Below, piece by piece: positions 165-15,573 of a stretch of 64,000 nucleotides of DNA. The position numbers were made by a program, and so were the translations under genes. The DNA comes from Escherichia coli (GTDB taxonomy: Bacteria; Pseudomonadota; Gammaproteobacteria; Enterobacterales; Enterobacteriaceae). Position 1 is the first letter of the stretch, and each line of letters begins with the position of its first letter. The notes under the pieces are model-generated. The model saw nothing but the letters and a program-made list of their open reading frames with translations. It did no database searches and had not been told where the DNA came from. Location: assembly GCF_013122565.1 (NCBI RefSeq), contig NZ_CP053258.1; one strand, written 5' to 3'.

Positions 165-950
165 GTGGTTCTTATGTCCGAAACAAAAAACGAACTTGAA
201 GACCTGCTGGAAAAAGCAGCAACCGAACCGGCTCACCGCCCGGCCTTTTTCCGTACTCTACTGGAATCCACCGTCTGGGTGCCGGGTACGGCGGCGCAGG
301 GCGAGGCAGTAGTTGAAGATAGCGCGCTTGATTTACAGCACTGGGAAAAAGAAGATGGCACCAGCGTCATTCCTTTTTTTACCTCGTTAGAAGCACTTCA
401 ACAGGCGGTTGAAGACGAACAGGCATTTGTCGTAATGCCCGTTCGCACATTGTTTGAGATGACCCTTGGTGAAACGCTCTTCCTTAATGCCAAACTGCCA
501 ACCGGTAAAGAGTTTATGCCGCGTGAAATCAGTTTGTTGATTGGTGAAGAAGGGAGTCCGCTGAGTAGTCAGGAAGTACTGGAAGGCGGTGAATCGCTGA
601 TATTATCGGAAGTCGCAGAGCCGCCAGCACAAATGATTGATTCACTCACCACCTTATTTAAAACCATTAAGCCAGTGAAGCGTGCTTTTATTTGTTCAAT
701 TAAAGAGAACGAAGAGGCACAGCCTAATTTACTTATTGGCATTGAAGCCGATGGTGATATCGAAGAAATTATTCAGGCGGCGGGAAGTGTAGCGACCGAT
801 ACATTACCTGGCGATGAACCAATCGATATTTGTCAGGTGAAAAAAGGGGAAAAAGGAATTAGCCACTTTATTACCGAACATATTGCGCCATTCTATGAAC
901 GTCGCTGGGGTGGTTTTTTGCGTGACTTTAAACAGAATCGGATAATCTAA
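165..950 (+). CDS. sseB: SseB (enhanced serine sensitivity protein)
   Basis: ORF track 261 aa; track start is GTG at 165, an in-frame ATG at 174 (MSETKNE..., 258 aa) is the more likely start; position next to sseA as in E. coli. Confidence 0.9.
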   Translation: MVLMSETKNELEDLLEKAATEPAHRPAFFRTLLESTVWVPGTAAQGEAVVEDSALDLQHWEKEDGTSVIPFFTSLEALQQAVEDEQAFVVMPVRTLFEMTLGETLFLNAKLPTGKEFMPREISLLIGEEGSPLSSQEVLEGGESLILSEVAEPPAQMIDSLTTLFKTIKPVKRAFICSIKENEEAQPNLLIGIEADGDIEEIIQAAGSVATDTLPGDEPIDICQVKKGEKGISHFITEHIAPFYERRWGGFLRDFKQNRII

Positions 951-990
951 AATATGCCGCCCTAAAGGGCGGCATTCTGGCTTACCTGCT
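951..990. terminator. Hairpin directly after sseB stop; T-run is on the - strand side, so likely terminator of ryfA copy 1 and weak terminator for sseB
   Basis: aaaatatgccgccctaaagggcggcat: GC stem with flanking A-run on + and T-run on -; repeated at about 1627-1660 and 2309-2340. Confidence 0.5.
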
Positions 991-1252
991 GTTCTGAAGG
1001 TTGTTAACCACCAGTAAATTGTCGCCGGAGAGACTCCGGTTATTATTTACCTCGGTTAACAGCGCACCAGAAACAATAAGTACGATACAGAAGCACCGTA
1101 TCTTCATTGTGCGGTCCATGCGAAGACCGCATCACGACAGCACCACTGGCGATATTGCCGCGATAGCAAGCGCTGAGACGCGCTTGCTCTAAAGGTCGCG
1201 GAACATCCTTTCCTTAAGCCAGCGCCCGCTTGCGAGACGGCGGAAAGGGCCG
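955..1252 (-). ncRNA. ryfA: ryfA-like transcript copy 1 (mRNA-like RNA carrying a small ORF)
   Basis: Conserved TATTAT -10 candidate on - strand at about 1259-1264; hairpin terminator at about 951-990; ~300 nt, matching the recalled ~304-nt ryfA between sseA and sseB in K-12. Confidence 0.5.
982..1119 (-). CDS. Small hydrophobic protein, 45 aa (MDRTMKIRCFCIVLIVSGALLTEVNNNRSLSGDNLLVVNNLQNSR); candidate TimP-like type I toxin
   Basis: Hand translation of - strand; hydrophobic N-terminal segment; ORF conserved in all three units with synonymous changes; too short for the ORF track. Confidence 0.45.
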   Translation of the reverse strand: MDRTMKIRCFCIVLIVSGALLTEVNNNRSLSGDNLLVVNNLQNSR

Positions 1253-1295
1253 CAGTGGATAATACACTAACAGAACAATAATAACTCTCTTTTGC

Positions 1296-1324
1296 TTGAC
1301 AAAAAGAGAGTTACTGGCGAGTAT
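1296..1324 (+). promoter_or_regulatory. Candidate sigma70 promoter for + strand small RNA, copy 1 (TTGACA-17-GAGTAT)
   Basis: Perfect -35 TTGACA, 17-nt spacer, GAGTAT; same architecture in all three units although the spacer sequence differs in unit 3. Confidence 0.4.
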
Positions 1325-1330
1325 TGTCTC

Positions 1331-1428
1331 CGCTGAGACGCGCTTGCATTACTACGGTAATACAACCTGCTGGAAAGGCCGCGAACCAAACCGGCAACAA
1401 ATAGCCGCCTGATTTTGGCGGTTTTTTG
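1331..1428 (+). ncRNA. Candidate ~100-nt antisense-type sRNA, copy 1 (TimR/RyfB-like antitoxin RNA)
   Basis: Predicted start just after the promoter; 5' 17 nt cgctgagacgcgcttgc identical to 1171-1187 in the ryfA leader; ends at hairpin plus T-run at about 1405-1428. Confidence 0.4.
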
Positions 1429-1430
1429 TT
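1405..1430 (+). terminator. Intrinsic terminator of candidate sRNA copy 1
   Basis: ccgcctgattttggcgg hairpin followed by TTTTTTG. Confidence 0.55.
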
Positions 1431-1550
1431 GTTTAAAGAAAGTGAAATTACACGTTTAAGTAATATCTTTTATTGGTTAGTATTTTTAATATTAAGCGAA
1501 AATTGTTTATATTTGTCTGAATTCGGACTAATAAGTCAGGTTATTTTAAT

Positions 1551-1628
1551 ATCGAACATATTGCGCCATTCTATGAATGTCGCTGGGGTGGGCTTTTGCG
1601 TGACTTTAAACAGAATCGGATAATCTAA
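1551..1628 (+). pseudogene. Duplicated 3'-terminal fragment of sseB (last ~23 codons plus stop)
   Basis: Near-identical to 873-950, encodes ...HIAPFYECRWGGLLRDFKQNRII*; no start or upstream coding sequence. Confidence 0.6.
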
Positions 1629-1629
1629 A

Positions 1630-1930
1630 ATATGCCGCCCCAAAGGGCGGCATTCGGGCTTACTTGCTGCTCTGACGGTTGTTAACCACCAGTAAATTGT
1701 CGCCGGAGAGACTCCGGTTATTATTTACCTCGGTTAACAGCGCACCAGAAACAATAAGTACGATACAGAAGCACCGTATCTTCATTGTGCGGTCCATGCG
1801 AAGACCGCATCACGACAGCACCACTGGCGATATTGCCGCGATAGCAAGCGCTGTGAAACACCTGCATTTACGGCCACGGAACATCCTTTCCTAAAGCCAG
1901 CGCCCGTTTGCGAGACGGCGGAAAGGGCCG
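1630..1930 (-). ncRNA. ryfA: ryfA-like transcript copy 2
   Basis: Same architecture as copy 1; TATTAT on - strand at about 1937-1942, hairpin terminator at about 1627-1660. Confidence 0.45.
1660..1797 (-). CDS. Small hydrophobic protein, 45 aa, copy 2 (C-terminus ...VVNNRQSSK)
   Basis: Same frame and start as copy 1; differences confined to the last residues. Confidence 0.45.
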   Translation of the reverse strand: MDRTMKIRCFCIVLIVSGALLTEVNNNRSLSGDNLLVVNNRQSSK

Positions 1931-1973
1931 GTGTCGATAATACGCTAAATAAACAATAATTACTCTCTTTTGC

Positions 1974-2002
1974 TTGACAAAAAGAGAGTTGCTGGCGAAT
2001 AT
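1974..2002 (+). promoter_or_regulatory. Candidate promoter for + strand sRNA, copy 2 (TTGACA-17-GAATAT)
   Basis: Same spacing as copy 1. Confidence 0.4.
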
Positions 2003-2008
2003 TGCTCT

Positions 2009-2110
2009 GCTGTGAAGCACCTGCGTTGCTCATGCAACACAAGTCAATCTGCTGGAGAGGCCGCGAACCAAACCGGCAACAAATAACCGCCTGATCTTGG
2101 CGGTTTTTTG
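2009..2110 (+). ncRNA. Candidate antisense-type sRNA, copy 2
   Basis: 5' region gctgtgaagcacctgcgtt matches 1849-1868 with two A-to-G differences that would give G-U pairs; hairpin plus T-run terminator at about 2085-2110. Confidence 0.4.
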
Positions 2111-2230
2111 TTGCTTAAAGAAAGTGAATTTACATGTTTAAGTAATATCTTTTACCGGTTAGTATTTTTAATATTGAGCGGGATTTGTTTATATTTGTCT
2201 GAATTCGGACTAATAAGCCAGGTCATTTTA

Positions 2231-2310
2231 ATATCGAACATATTGCGCCATTCTATGAACGTCGCTGGGGTGGTTTTTTGCGTGACTTTAAACAGAATCG
2301 GATAATCTAA
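2231..2310 (+). pseudogene. Second duplicated 3'-terminal fragment of sseB
   Basis: Identical in sequence class to 873-950 and 1551-1628. Confidence 0.6.
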
Positions 2311-2311
2311 A

Positions 2312-2612
2312 ATATGCCGCCCCAAAGGGCGGCATTCGGGCTTACCTGCTGTTCTGAAGGTTGTTAACCACCAATAAATTGTTGCCGGAGAGACTCCGGT
2401 TATTATTTACCTCAGTTAACAGCGCACCAGAAACAATAAGTACGATACAGAAGCACCGTATCTTCATTGTGCGGTCCATGCGAAGACCGCATCACGACAG
2501 CACCACTGGCGATATTGCCGCGATAGCAAGCACTGTGGGGTGCCTGTATTTACGGTCATGGAACATCCTTTCCTAAAGCCAGTGCCCGTTTGCGAGACGG
2601 CGAAAAGGGCCG
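2312..2612 (-). ncRNA. ryfA: ryfA-like transcript copy 3
   Basis: TATTAT on - strand at about 2619-2624; hairpin terminator at about 2309-2340. Confidence 0.45.
2342..2479 (-). CDS. Small hydrophobic protein, 45 aa, copy 3 (D33N plus two synonymous changes relative to copy 1)
   Basis: ACC to ACT and CTG to TTG silent substitutions preserve the reading frame. Confidence 0.45.
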   Translation of the reverse strand: MDRTMKIRCFCIVLIVSGALLTEVNNNRSLSGNNLLVVNNLQNSR

Positions 2613-2658
2613 TTAAGAATAATACTCTCATGTTTGAATAATTACTCTGTTTATTATC

Positions 2659-2687
2659 TTGACATGGCCAGGCATAAAAGAGAGTAT
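2659..2687 (+). promoter_or_regulatory. Candidate promoter for + strand sRNA, copy 3 (TTGACA-17-GAGTAT)
   Basis: Hexamers and 17-nt spacing kept although spacer and upstream palindrome have diverged. Confidence 0.4.
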
Positions 2688-2692
2688 TTCAA

Positions 2693-2795
2693 CACTGTGG
2701 GGTGCCTGCGTTGCTCCGGCAACACAAGCCAACCTGCTGGAAAGGCCGCGAACCAGACCAGCAATAAAAAACCGCCAAATTCGGCGGTTTTTTAT
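2693..2795 (+). ncRNA. Candidate antisense-type sRNA, copy 3
   Basis: 5' cactgtggggtgcctg identical to 2531-2546 in the ryfA-3 leader; ends at terminator 2768-2797. Confidence 0.4.
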
Positions 2796-2800
2796 TGCCT
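2766..2800. terminator. Bidirectional intrinsic terminator between sRNA copy 3 (+) and sseA (-)
   Basis: caataaaaaaccgccaaattcggcggttttttattg: GC stem flanked by A-run and T-run. Confidence 0.6.
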
Positions 2801-2809
2801 GTAAAAAGC

Positions 2810-3655
2810 TTATTTCACTGGCTCAACCGGTAAATCTGCCCGCGCGCCCCATTCACTCCATGCGCCGTCGTACAGTTTCACGTTTGGCACATCCAGCGTC
2901 GCGAGTGCCAACAAAACCACGGCTGCTGTTACACCAGAGCCGCAGCTGACGATAATCGGTTTGTCATAGCTGACGCCGCGACCAAAAAATATCGCATCCA
3001 GTTCATCGGTCGTTTTTAGTTCGCCTTCGCGCACCAGTTCCGTCCACGGAACGTTCAATGCACCGGGAATATGTCCGCGACGTAAACCTGGGCGAGGTTC
3101 ATCAACTTCTGCGTTAAAACGTGCAGCCGGGCGGGCATCAACAATTTGCGCCGTATTTTCATGGCTTGCCAATAATACATCGGTTACTTTCACCACGGCT
3201 TCAGGATTAAACGCGGCGTTAAACTCTCCTTCCGGCAGCTCTACTGCACCTTCTTCTAACAACAGATCATCGCGCTGCCAGCCTGCAAGTCCACCCCCCA
3301 GAATCGACACTTTCTCTACACCAAAGGTGCGCAGCATCCACCATGCTCGTGGGGCTGAGAAAAGATTACCTTCGTCATAGACAATCAGGTGCTTATCCTG
3401 GTTAACGCCTAATTCACGCATTGCCACGGCGAACGTTTCCGGGCGCGGCAGCATGTGCGGAAGCGGGGAAGTGTGATCAGAAAGCGCTTCGATATCAAAA
3501 AACACTGCGCCGGGAATATGTCCATTCAGATACTCCTGAGCAACGTTACGATCTTCCTGTCCAGGCGACGCCATGCGGGCATCGATAATCTGAATTTCCG
3601 GGTCATCAATATGTTCGGCGAGCCAGTCGGCTCCTACAAACCATGTCGTGGACAT
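2810..3655 (-). CDS. sseA: 3-mercaptopyruvate sulfurtransferase (rhodanese family)
   Basis: 281 aa from ATG at 3655 (MSTTWFVGADWLAEH...); track ORF extends further upstream; active-site CGSGVTA. Confidence 0.93.
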   Translation of the reverse strand: MSTTWFVGADWLAEHIDDPEIQIIDARMASPGQEDRNVAQEYLNGHIPGAVFFDIEALSDHTSPLPHMLPRPETFAVAMRELGVNQDKHLIVYDEGNLFSAPRAWWMLRTFGVEKVSILGGGLAGWQRDDLLLEEGAVELPEGEFNAAFNPEAVVKVTDVLLASHENTAQIVDARPAARFNAEVDEPRPGLRRGHIPGALNVPWTELVREGELKTTDELDAIFFGRGVSYDKPIIVSCGSGVTAAVVLLALATLDVPNVKLYDGAWSEWGARADLPVEPVK

Positions 3656-3861
3656 AGGCATCTCCATTTTTGCCGGGGTTAGGCTAAATTGTCGGATGTT
3701 TAGTGAAAAGCGACAAGCAAAAGAGGCTGATTTGGCTGTCTGAGCCACAATTCTCACTAAAATTCGGATTGTATGGGCGTGATACTGAATTACATAACGT
3801 AAATTCTCACGCATAATAATTATTCGACGTTGCTAACGGGCCATTGTGGCAGGGATGAAAA

Positions 3862-14344: not shown

Positions 14345-15463
14345 ATGCATAACCAGGCTCCAATTCAACGTAGAAAATCAACACGTATTTACGTTGGGAA
14401 TGTGCCGATTGGCGATGGTGCTCCCATCGCCGTACAGTCCATGACCAATACGCGTACGACAGACGTCGAAGCAACGGTCAATCAAATCAAGGCGCTGGAA
14501 CGCGTTGGCGCTGATATCGTCCGTGTATCCGTACCGACGATGGACGCGGCAGAAGCGTTCAAACTCATCAAACAGCAGGTTAACGTGCCGCTGGTGGCTG
14601 ACATCCACTTCGACTATCGCATTGCGCTGAAAGTAGCGGAATACGGCGTCGATTGTCTGCGTATTAACCCTGGCAATATCGGTAATGAAGAGCGTATTCG
14701 CATGGTGGTTGACTGTGCGCGCGATAAAAACATTCCAATCCGTATTGGCGTTAACGCCGGATCGCTGGAAAAAGATCTGCAAGAAAAGTATGGCGAACCG
14801 ACGCCGCAGGCGTTGCTGGAATCCGCCATGCGTCATGTTGATCATCTCGATCGCCTGAACTTCGATCAGTTCAAAGTTAGCGTGAAAGCGTCTGACGTCT
14901 TCCTCGCTGTTGAGTCTTATCGTTTGCTGGCAAAACAGATCGATCAGCCACTGCATCTGGGGATCACCGAAGCCGGTGGTGCGCGCAGTGGGGCAGTAAA
15001 ATCCGCCATTGGTTTAGGTCTGCTGCTGTCTGAAGGCATCGGCGACACGCTGCGCGTATCGCTGGCGGCCGATCCGGTCGAAGAGATCAAAGTCGGTTTC
15101 GATATTTTGAAATCGCTGCGTATCCGTTCGCGCGGGATCAACTTCATCGCCTGCCCAACCTGTTCGCGTCAGGAGTTTGATGTTATCGGTACGGTTAACG
15201 CGTTGGAGCAACGCCTGGAAGATATCATCACTCCGATGGACGTTTCGATAATCGGCTGCGTGGTGAATGGCCCAGGTGAGGCGCTGGTTTCTACACTCGG
15301 CGTCACCGGCGGCAACAAGAAAAGCGGCCTCTATGAAGATGGCGTGCGCAAAGACCGTCTGGACAACAACGATATGATCGACCAGCTGGAAGCACGCATT
15401 CGTGCGAAAGCCAGTCAGCTGGACGAAGCGCGTCGAATTGACGTTCAGCAGGTTGAAAAATAA
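14345..15463 (+). CDS. ispG: HMBPP synthase (MEP pathway)
   Basis: 372 aa. Confidence 0.95.
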
Positions 15464-15573
15464 TAACGTGATGGGAAGCGCCTCGCTTCCCGTGTATGAT
15501 TGAACCCGCATGGCTCCCGAAACATTGAGGGAAGCGTTGAGGGTTCATTTTTATATTCAGAAAGAGAATAAAC

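Follow-up and report, generated by a model that had tools for sequence, protein, structure and literature searches.

Three predicted tandem timP/TimR modules with copy-specific seed and target sequences between sseB and sseA in Escherichia coli

timP and TimR genes at the sseB-sseA locus

A stretch of 64,000 nucleotides from an Escherichia coli genome (contig NZ_CP053258.1 of RefSeq assembly GCF_013122565.1), referred to below as the window, carries three units of ~680 bp each between sseB (165-950, plus strand) and sseA (~2810-3660, minus strand), a position that agrees with the context in annotated E. coli genomes. Each unit combines a minus-strand copy of timP (ryfA), predicted to encode the toxin TimP, with a divergent plus-strand gene for a putative small RNA (sRNA) of the TimR (RyfB) type. 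A housekeeping stretch of the window shows 99.5% identity to E. coli C, which places it in the E. coli lineage. An initial annotation had read this array as a type I toxin-antitoxin RNA pair, divergently encoded and present in three variants of different specificity, and the claim is supported here by family matches, base pairing and covariation.

Three matches to the Rfam ryfA family (RF00126), each covering positions 1-296 of the 296-position model, were identified on the minus strand, with scores of 314, 316 and 324 bits (gathering score 80). The timP mRNA of unit 1 (949..1253; 314 bits), designated type A, is predicted to end at an intrinsic terminator (975-954). The unit 2 copy (1627..1931; 316 bits) belongs to type B, the type of Shigella dysenteriae RyfA2 and of K-12 ryfA, and its leader matches both the ryfA2 probe of Fris 2017 and the K-12 sequence, while that of unit 3 (2309..2613; 324 bits) belongs to type C, resembling S. 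dysenteriae RyfA1 and lying near the ryfA1 probe of the same study. All three contain an open reading frame (ORF) of 41 amino acids, which scores 84.2-84.3 bits against the NCBIfam model NF040796 (toxic_TimP; cutoff 45), namely 982..1107 in unit 1 (MKIRCFCIVLIVSGALLTEVNNNRSLSGDNLLVVNNLQNSR; 84.2 bits), 1660..1785 in unit 2 (C-terminus ...NNRQSSK; 84.3 bits) and 2342..2467 in unit 3 (84.2 bits). The equivalent genes in E. coli genomes are labelled timP by the Prokaryotic Genome Annotation Pipeline (PGAP).

The TimR target comprises the 5′ arm and loop of stem-loop 2 (SL2) in the timP leader (leader nt 63-83), and SL2 folds in all three types, with predicted energies of -17.3, -10.9 and -9.2 kcal/mol for units 1, 2 and 3, respectively. 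On the minus strand of the window the target segments occupy 1171..1191 (leader nt 63-83), 1849..1868 (nt 64-83) and 2531..2550 (nt 64-83). Leader nt 30-36 (CGCUGGC; CACUGGC in unit 3) are complementary to nt 104-110 (GCCAGUG) in all three copies, and this complementarity suggests that the two segments may form the arms of a pseudoknot.

Upstream of each timP gene, the plus strand carries a match to the TTGACA/-10 promoter consensus 6-8 nt before the seed, followed ~70-90 nt downstream by a terminator hairpin and T-run. These matches bracket, and so support, a predicted plus-strand RNA of ~100 nt, the size of the published TimR and RyfB sRNAs. In unit 1 the divergent promoter region spans 1275..1325, with the minus-strand site located by promoter scan and the plus-strand site read by homology to unit 2. 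The -35 boxes of the timP promoter (-35 1302-1297, -10 1280-1275) and the TimR promoter (-35 TTGACA 1296-1301, -10 AGTATT 1320-1325) overlap within a palindrome, and the predicted TimR-A sRNA of ~100 nt (1331..1431) begins with its seed (1331-1351) and ends at a terminator (1403-1423) followed by a T-run. The TimR promoter of unit 2 (1974..2003; TTGACA, 18-nt spacer, AATATT) was returned by the promoter scan with 10/12 matches, the divergent timP promoter lies at 1980-1953 on the minus strand, and the predicted TimR-B sRNA (2008..2113) carries its seed at 2008-2027 and a terminator at 2085-2105 ahead of a T-run. The palindromic promoter region with overlapping divergent -35 boxes is common to units 1 and 2 (CTCTCTTTTGCTTGACAAAAAGAGAG; 1254-1330 and 1932-2008), and the corresponding region of unit 3 (2614-2692), adjoining sseA, differs from it in sequence. 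The unit 3 TimR promoter (2659..2687; TTGACA 2659-2664, 17-nt spacer, GAGTAT 2682-2687) was read from the sequence and is not listed by the promoter scan; it would drive TimR-C (2693..2797; seed 2693-2712), a predicted sRNA of the type of S. dysenteriae RyfB1, for which the fold places a terminator hairpin at 2761-2798.

The TimR starts (1331, 2008 and 2693) lie 77-80 nt beyond the timP 5′ ends (1253, 1931 and 2613), and the two genes of a unit do not overlap. A cis-antisense type I system, of the Ibs/Sib or hok/sok type, was rejected on this ground. The TimR/RyfB sRNAs match no Rfam family at gathering score, and no gene is listed for them in the RefSeq annotation of the fetched E. coli loci.

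Seed and target repeats within each module

The initial annotation had described, in each module, a short segment occurring twice in direct orientation, once in the timP leader and once at the predicted 5′ end of the divergent RNA. All three pairs were recovered, each inside its own module with the copies ~160 nt apart. The leader segment 1171-1187 of unit 1 is identical to the TimR-A seed at 1331-1347 (CGCTGAGACGCGCTTGC; 17/17 nt, offset 160), as is that of unit 3 (2531-2546) to its plus-strand copy at 2693-2708 (CACTGTGGGGTGCCTG; 16/16 nt, offset 162). In unit 2, the leader segment 1850-1868 and the plus-strand copy 2009-2027 agree at 17/19 nt with an offset of 159, a register that can be extended to 1849-1868 and 2008-2027. 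The repeat proposed for this unit at 1849-1868 and 2009-2028 is therefore present, but one base out of register. At both internal differences the leader carries an A and the plus-strand RNA a G, giving the G-U pairs that had been proposed.

Alignment of the three units bears out that each module has a segment of its own, on which its two copies agree. The modules are ~98% identical across the timP body, and what distinguishes them is concentrated in two blocks, one at the leader segment and one where the divergent RNA begins. A search of both strands of the window with up to two mismatches gives exactly two matches per seed, compared to 0.02, 0.10 and 0.03 chance matches expected for the seeds of units 1, 2 and 3, and none of 100 dinucleotide-preserving shuffles yields two.

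Cognate and non-cognate pairing

Pairing was computed from in-register helices and cofold ensemble energies. RNAduplex runs on the full-length RNAs had given meaningless long structures of -63 to -79 kcal/mol without discrimination, and were replaced. Predicted binding is stronger for the cognate than for the non-cognate combination in every case. The cognate helices comprise 17 contiguous pairs in unit 1, all Watson-Crick and formed with the TimR-A 5′ end, 19 in unit 2 (TimR from 2009; the 20-nt in-register match of the target contains 17 Watson-Crick and three G-U pairs) and 16, again all Watson-Crick, between the unit 3 target and TimR-C. The corresponding ensemble binding energies are -18.9, -21.9 and -19.8 kcal/mol, compared to -6.1 to -15.2 kcal/mol for non-cognate combinations, in which the helices are interrupted and of 4-11 pairs, with one exception of 18 pairs. 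The computed cognate advantage thus amounts to 3.7-13.7 kcal/mol, with some non-cognate pairs being non-negligible.

Covariation across strains and genera

The loci sampled for covariation derive from 20 complete E. coli genomes, 48 metagenomic contigs and 15 species-representative genomes. The latter were drawn from at least 120 loci matching the hairpin motif GCGGTCNNNGCANNGACCGCAC, which is too unspecific to be used alone; most of the remainder are chance matches in GC-rich genomes. The 15 real timP homologs among the matches listed belong to Escherichia, Citrobacter, Superficieibacter, Rahnella, Erwinia and Yersinia, with Salmonella, Shigella and Klebsiella representatives falling outside this sample. 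Three loci (L069, L078 and L114) were left out of the covariation set, being partial nhmmer matches from which the leader position could not be extrapolated.

The matching segments are not invariant; they vary and covary among strains and genera. In each sampled genus the leader segment (nt 63-87) is matched by a segment of 16-23 nt located 64-82 nt upstream of timP, and the sequences of both differ from genus to genus. A gapless alignment of target plus seed, homologous on both sides and with one representative for each of 11 specificity types, gives a 20-pair intermolecular helix in which 95.9% of cells are paired and 13/20 duplex pairs show two-sided changes. None of 500 column shuffles matched the observed covariation values, and only 27-47% of cells pair in slid registers.

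Inter-unit spacers and neighbouring features

The units are separated by two spacers that match the Rfam family IS128 (RF00125) on the minus strand, at 1385..1595 (203 bits), where the match runs antisense over the TimR-A terminator and into an sseB fragment, and at 2067..2277 (225 bits). Units 2 and 3 are each preceded by a plus-strand duplicate of the sseB 3′ end (877-950), one at 1555..1628, which marks the start of unit 2 and is identical at 71/74 nt, and a second at 2237..2310 (74/74 nt). PGAP annotates the equivalent fragments in E. coli as partial SseB pseudogenes. Towards its 3′ end IS128 runs antisense to the TimR terminator, and towards its 5′ end it reaches into the duplicated sseB fragment; all its matches lie between units, the K-12 one being located where the remnant of a lost unit is left. 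Given this coincidence with the spacers, IS128 is probably not an independent component and may be a by-product of the array rather than an sRNA gene in its own right. Unit boundaries were determined by direct comparison, Tandem Repeats Finder being blind to the ~680-nt unit at its period limit of 500 nt.

The sole further Rfam match in the window is the sroE sRNA (15463-15554, plus strand, 116.6 bits). In the E. coli B/BL21 lineage (hits H126-H143), the transposase of the IS3-like element ISEcB1 is located within the sseB-sseA intergenic region.

Array architectures and orphan TimR genes in E. coli

Four specificity types could be distinguished in E. coli by their target cores: type A (GCAAGCGCGTCTCAGCG), found in unit 1 of the window, type B (GCAGGTGTTTCACAGCG), found in unit 2 and in K-12, type C (CAGGCACCCCACAGTG), found in unit 3, and type D (GCAAGTGTATCTCGTC), found at locus L182. 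The order of timP leaders (P) and TimR genes (r) was determined for 52 arrays bounded by sseB and sseA, with TimR genes called by fuzzy matching, as a strict anchor regular expression missed several. Single modules predominate, with PA-rA in 18 arrays, PC-rC in eight and PB-rB in two. PB-rA-rB, PB-rB-PC-rC and PA-rA-rD occur in four arrays each, PB-rB-PA-rA in three, and the order of the window, PA-rA-PB-rB-PC-rC, is shared with strain MEW (two arrays). Seven further orders occur once each (seven arrays), including PB-rB-PA-rA-PC-rC and the hybrid PC-rA-PB-rB-PC-rC. Arrays with more than one toxin gene are uncommon, there being 5,586 timP places in 5,425 genomes, with a maximum of three per genome. 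RefSeq/PGAP lists three timP genes with intervening partial sseB pseudogenes in strains MEW, 19KM1831, PapRG-04-4 and PapM-32-1.

Among the 52 arrays, the cognate TimR is present for every timP leader but one. The exception, on a metagenome contig with a complete array at ~3x coverage (L166), combines a type B timP with TimR-A only, while a partial locus on a second metagenome contig (L160) carries a type A timP with a B-like TimR; both may be genuine exceptions, or else artefacts of an assembly that collapsed the repeats. Orphans are frequent among TimR genes and almost absent among toxins, an asymmetry that a toxin-antitoxin relationship predicts.

E. coli K-12 MG1655 (L122, 2080-2870) provides an instance of this pattern. 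Its single timP has a type B leader, and the adjacent divergent sRNA gene is of the non-cognate type A. This is followed by an IS128 spacer, a stub of a deleted timP of which GGCGGAAAGGGCCGG... is left, and a type B TimR, so that the cognate sRNA gene is found ~400 nt from timP, adjoining sseA. Similar arrangements were observed at L132, L146, L163 and L178. Of 5,426 complete E. coli genomes, 1,688 contain the K-12 stub junction with a coverage of at least 80%. No paper was found that describes the non-cognate neighbour of K-12 timP with the cognate TimR ~400 nt away. In K-12-like strains, deletion of the timR beside timP would remove a non-cognate sRNA, which could confound ryfA/timR genetics.

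Type D, with the seed GTAGACGAGATACACTTGCAG, is represented by both leader and TimR at L182, and was further identified at L131 (1171-1300), L153, L156, L158, L165 and L180. Its TimR gene has an intact promoter (TTGACA-17-GAGTAT) and terminator. The type D TimR is present in 395 of the 5,426 complete genomes (~7%) and the type D timP leader in 39 (~0.7%), and most type D TimR genes are therefore orphans. In strain 19KM1831 (L123, 540-1240), a type C timP leader lies beside a type A TimR while TimR-C is found in unit 3 of the array; the leader and sRNA halves of a module are therefore recombinable. At L162 (OBUV01000011.1, ~1420-1540), a timP leader is fused directly to a TimR body, as would be expected if recombination between the repeats had removed the intervening ~160 nt together with both promoters.

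We tentatively suggest, as a possibility short of even odds, that E. coli maintains at the sseB-sseA locus a reshuffled set of four or more timP/TimR classes (A-D) insulated from each other, in which unequal recombination builds and erodes arrays of one to three toxins, while selection never strips a toxin of its cognate TimR and readily keeps intact orphan TimR genes, possibly as immunity against incoming or recombining toxin alleles. The architectures and the orphan pattern are observed; the latter may reflect selection for orthogonality or anti-addiction, or else recombination debris. The searchable literature yielded no paper on four specificity classes or triple arrays. A single chromosomal locus holds four or more RNA addresses, predicted to be orthogonal, for a toxin that hardly varies, and its arrays of one to three modules in several orders, with hybrids and orphan sRNAs, offer a natural system for the diversification of sRNA-target specificity. 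The locus also bears on the persistence of chromosomal type I toxin-antitoxin loci.

Proposed mechanism and alternative explanations

With a probability of about 90%, the window contains three tandem, complete timP/TimR (ryfA/ryfB) type I modules, each with its own antisense address by which the TimR 5′ end pairs with SL2 of its own leader. This reading rests on the anatomy, the family matches, the complementarity, the predicted preference for cognate partners and the covariation described above; that the window alleles also behave as their homologs do in sRNA transcription, in toxicity and in the use of a pseudoknot is what we infer from the literature. The minus strand of each unit would be transcribed into a timP mRNA of ~305 nt, encoding the 41-amino acid inner-membrane toxin TimP behind a structured 5′ untranslated region (UTR), and the plus strand, from a start ~78 nt upstream of timP, into the ~100-nt sRNA TimR. 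The first 17-20 nt of TimR are predicted to pair with SL2 of the timP leader, along its 5′ arm and loop. If the mechanism is that of Salmonella, this binding would break the pseudoknot between SL1 and SL3 that is needed for timP translation, and the toxin would therefore not be made. As the toxin genes are near-identical and the SL2 and seed sequences (A, B and C) distinct, each TimR is predicted to repress mainly its own timP.

Several points weigh against this interpretation. The U-rich type B target forms an 18-pair helix with TimR-C (seven G-U pairs, -11.2 kcal/mol) and binds TimR-A at -15.2 kcal/mol, and the predicted insulation between types would thus be incomplete. For timP of unit 3 the promoter scan gave no -35 box, only a TATTAT -10-like hexamer. 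In the covariation alignment, the register of each seed/target pair was that of the best match, which favours pairing. Published experimental specificity covers only RyfB1 against RyfA1 and RyfA2 (PMC5333039), and a direct experimental test of type A was not found in the literature. Lastly, ryfA phenotypes independent of the TimP ORF have been reported for uropathogenic (UPEC) and avian pathogenic (APEC) E. coli (PMC8205139, PMC13188913), so that toxin-antitoxin control may not be the only function of the RNA.

The last point leads to the view that RyfA is mainly a regulatory sRNA acting on ompC, fimbriae and stress, with RyfB/TimR as its anti-sRNA by titration or destabilization, and with three copies providing three separately tunable regulators. 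Overproduction of RyfA1 abolishes ompC mRNA and RyfB1 lowers RyfA1 (PMC5333039), ryfA variants with a disrupted TimP ORF still complement the UPEC phenotypes (PMC8205139), and RyfA and TimR have been read as interacting sRNAs in APEC (PMC13188913). Set against this, each of the three copies has an intact, near-identical TimP ORF that scores above the cutoff of the curated TimP model, while toxicity, membrane targeting and repression by TimR have been demonstrated in Salmonella (PMC7667032, PMC11228461), and the toxin leader almost never occurs without its cognate TimR although TimR orphans are common. We consider a mainly regulatory role rather unlikely, but the two views are compatible and the RNA could have both functions.

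Less probable still is that the copies are redundant, with seed differences representing neutral drift on an unstable tandem duplication and any TimR repressing any timP through the flanks (AAUGCA/UGCGUU) and G-U tolerance. Non-cognate ensemble energies down to -15 kcal/mol, the pairing of the B target with TimR-C across 18 positions including G-U pairs, and the complete metagenomic array L166, with its type B timP and TimR-A only, are what such redundancy would give. The same types nevertheless recur unchanged in unrelated strains, singly, in pairs and in triples, and are therefore old alleles rather than the result of recent drift. Furthermore, compensatory changes occur at 13/20 duplex positions, the cognate pairs always bind best, by 3.7-13.7 kcal/mol, RyfB1 (type C) was without effect on RyfA2 (type B) in experiment (PMC5333039), and the hybrid units of K-12 and L123 retain the cognate TimR elsewhere in the array. 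That the direct repeats are incidental by-products of locus duplication and recombination, without RNA-RNA function, is hardly credible. The locus is recombinogenic, as unit hybrids, deleted timP stubs and the inter-repeat deletion at L162 attest, but single-copy loci of distant genera carry the repeat at the same place although its sequence there is altogether different, and covariation lies far above the shuffle and slide controls. Compensatory mutagenesis and structure probing of the Salmonella pair (PMC7667032, PMC11228461) point the same way, and covariation together with the published compensatory mutagenesis in effect rules out recombination debris as the origin of the repeats.

The reading of three timP/TimR modules is thus retained, and the finding is correct but largely a rediscovery of a known system. 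The initial annotation had regarded the triplication with diversified seeds as undescribed. This stands for the third copy, as no paper using RyfA3/RyfB3 or describing a triple array was found in the searchable literature, though RefSeq already lists timP three times in some genomes; it fails for the rest, because sibling ryfA copies and copy-specific recognition were published in 2017 and the TimR mechanism in 2020-2026. Re-deriving a known toxin-antitoxin system and its copy-specific recognition from raw sequence validates the initial annotation and adds little, and the modest lead that remains is the four-type, orphan-rich population structure, including the K-12 arrangement.

Comparison with known systems

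The closest relative is found in Salmonella Typhimurium, where ryfA received the name timP and its divergent repressor the name TimR (Andresen 2020, PMC7667032). There, TimP was shown to be toxic and targeted to the membrane, and its translation to be repressed by TimR (PMC7667032, PMC11228461). Translation is blocked by pairing of TimR with the timP 5′ UTR (PMC7667032), where the sRNA binds SL2 and disrupts a pseudoknot required for translation (PMC11228461, PNAS 2024; PMC13000454, NAR 2026), and complementary upstream sequences were reported for every timP homolog examined in other enterobacteria (Fig. 8B in PMC7667032). The Salmonella pair shares with the window the Rfam ryfA family, the NF040796 toxin, a locus on the sseB side and a divergent, non-overlapping TimR whose 5′ end pairs with SL2. 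It comprises a single module, whereas the window contains three in tandem with three seed/target sequences, for which pseudoknot disruption would apply by homology.

In S. dysenteriae, tandem ryfA1 and ryfA2 each have a divergent RyfB of ~100 nt by RNA-seq (Fris 2017, PMC5333039). The "variable region" described there overlaps the RyfA-RyfB complementarity, and overexpression of RyfB1 lowered RyfA1 and left RyfA2 unaffected (PMC5333039). The ryfA2 probe in Table S1 of that study is of type B, as in unit 2 of the window, the RyfB1 cloning primer starts with CACTGTGGGGTGCCTG, an exact match to the first 16 nt of the unit 3 seed, and the ryfA1 probe is type C-like, one base off the type C target of the window. 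For these seed types, S. dysenteriae is reported to make a plus-strand transcript (PMC5333039), and by analogy one would be expected in the window strain. The authors treated RyfA as a non-coding sRNA, with the peptide undetected (PMC5333039). The two systems share tandem copies at the same locus and a variable region over the complementarity, and differ in copy number, with two copies in S. dysenteriae (B-C) and three in the window (A-B-C).

Among multicopy type I families, Ibs/Sib reportedly has five copies in E. coli with discrimination of cognate partners. This discrimination resides in a few variable nucleotides of the recognition domains, and the near-identical toxins are each under their own antisense RNA, as would be the case in the window. 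Sib RNAs are encoded in cis on the strand opposite ibs, to which they are complementary throughout, and the toxin family is unrelated to TimP, whereas the timP and TimR genes do not overlap, with ~78 nt between their 5′ ends and pairing over 17-20 nt only. The zorO-orzO / zorP-orzP locus of E. coli O157:H7 contains a divergent type I pair in tandem duplicate; its genes do not overlap, and the complementarity, located in the 5′ UTR of the toxin, extends over ~18 nt. It has two copies only and its toxin mRNA needs 5′ processing. The toxin, RNAs and locus are unrelated to those of the window, and timP needs no 5′ processing (PMC11228461); the zor/orz pairs are cited in the S. dysenteriae study (PMC5333039).

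The tisB/istR-1, shoB/ohsC and dinQ/agrB systems likewise resemble timP/TimR in that divergent, trans-acting sRNAs act on a structured toxin 5′ UTR far upstream of the ribosome binding site, and tisB also uses a pseudoknot (discussed in PMC11228461). Their sequences are unrelated, and they are single-copy or have duplicated antitoxins only. Furthermore, they rely on standby-site occlusion and mRNA processing, a different route from that of TimR.

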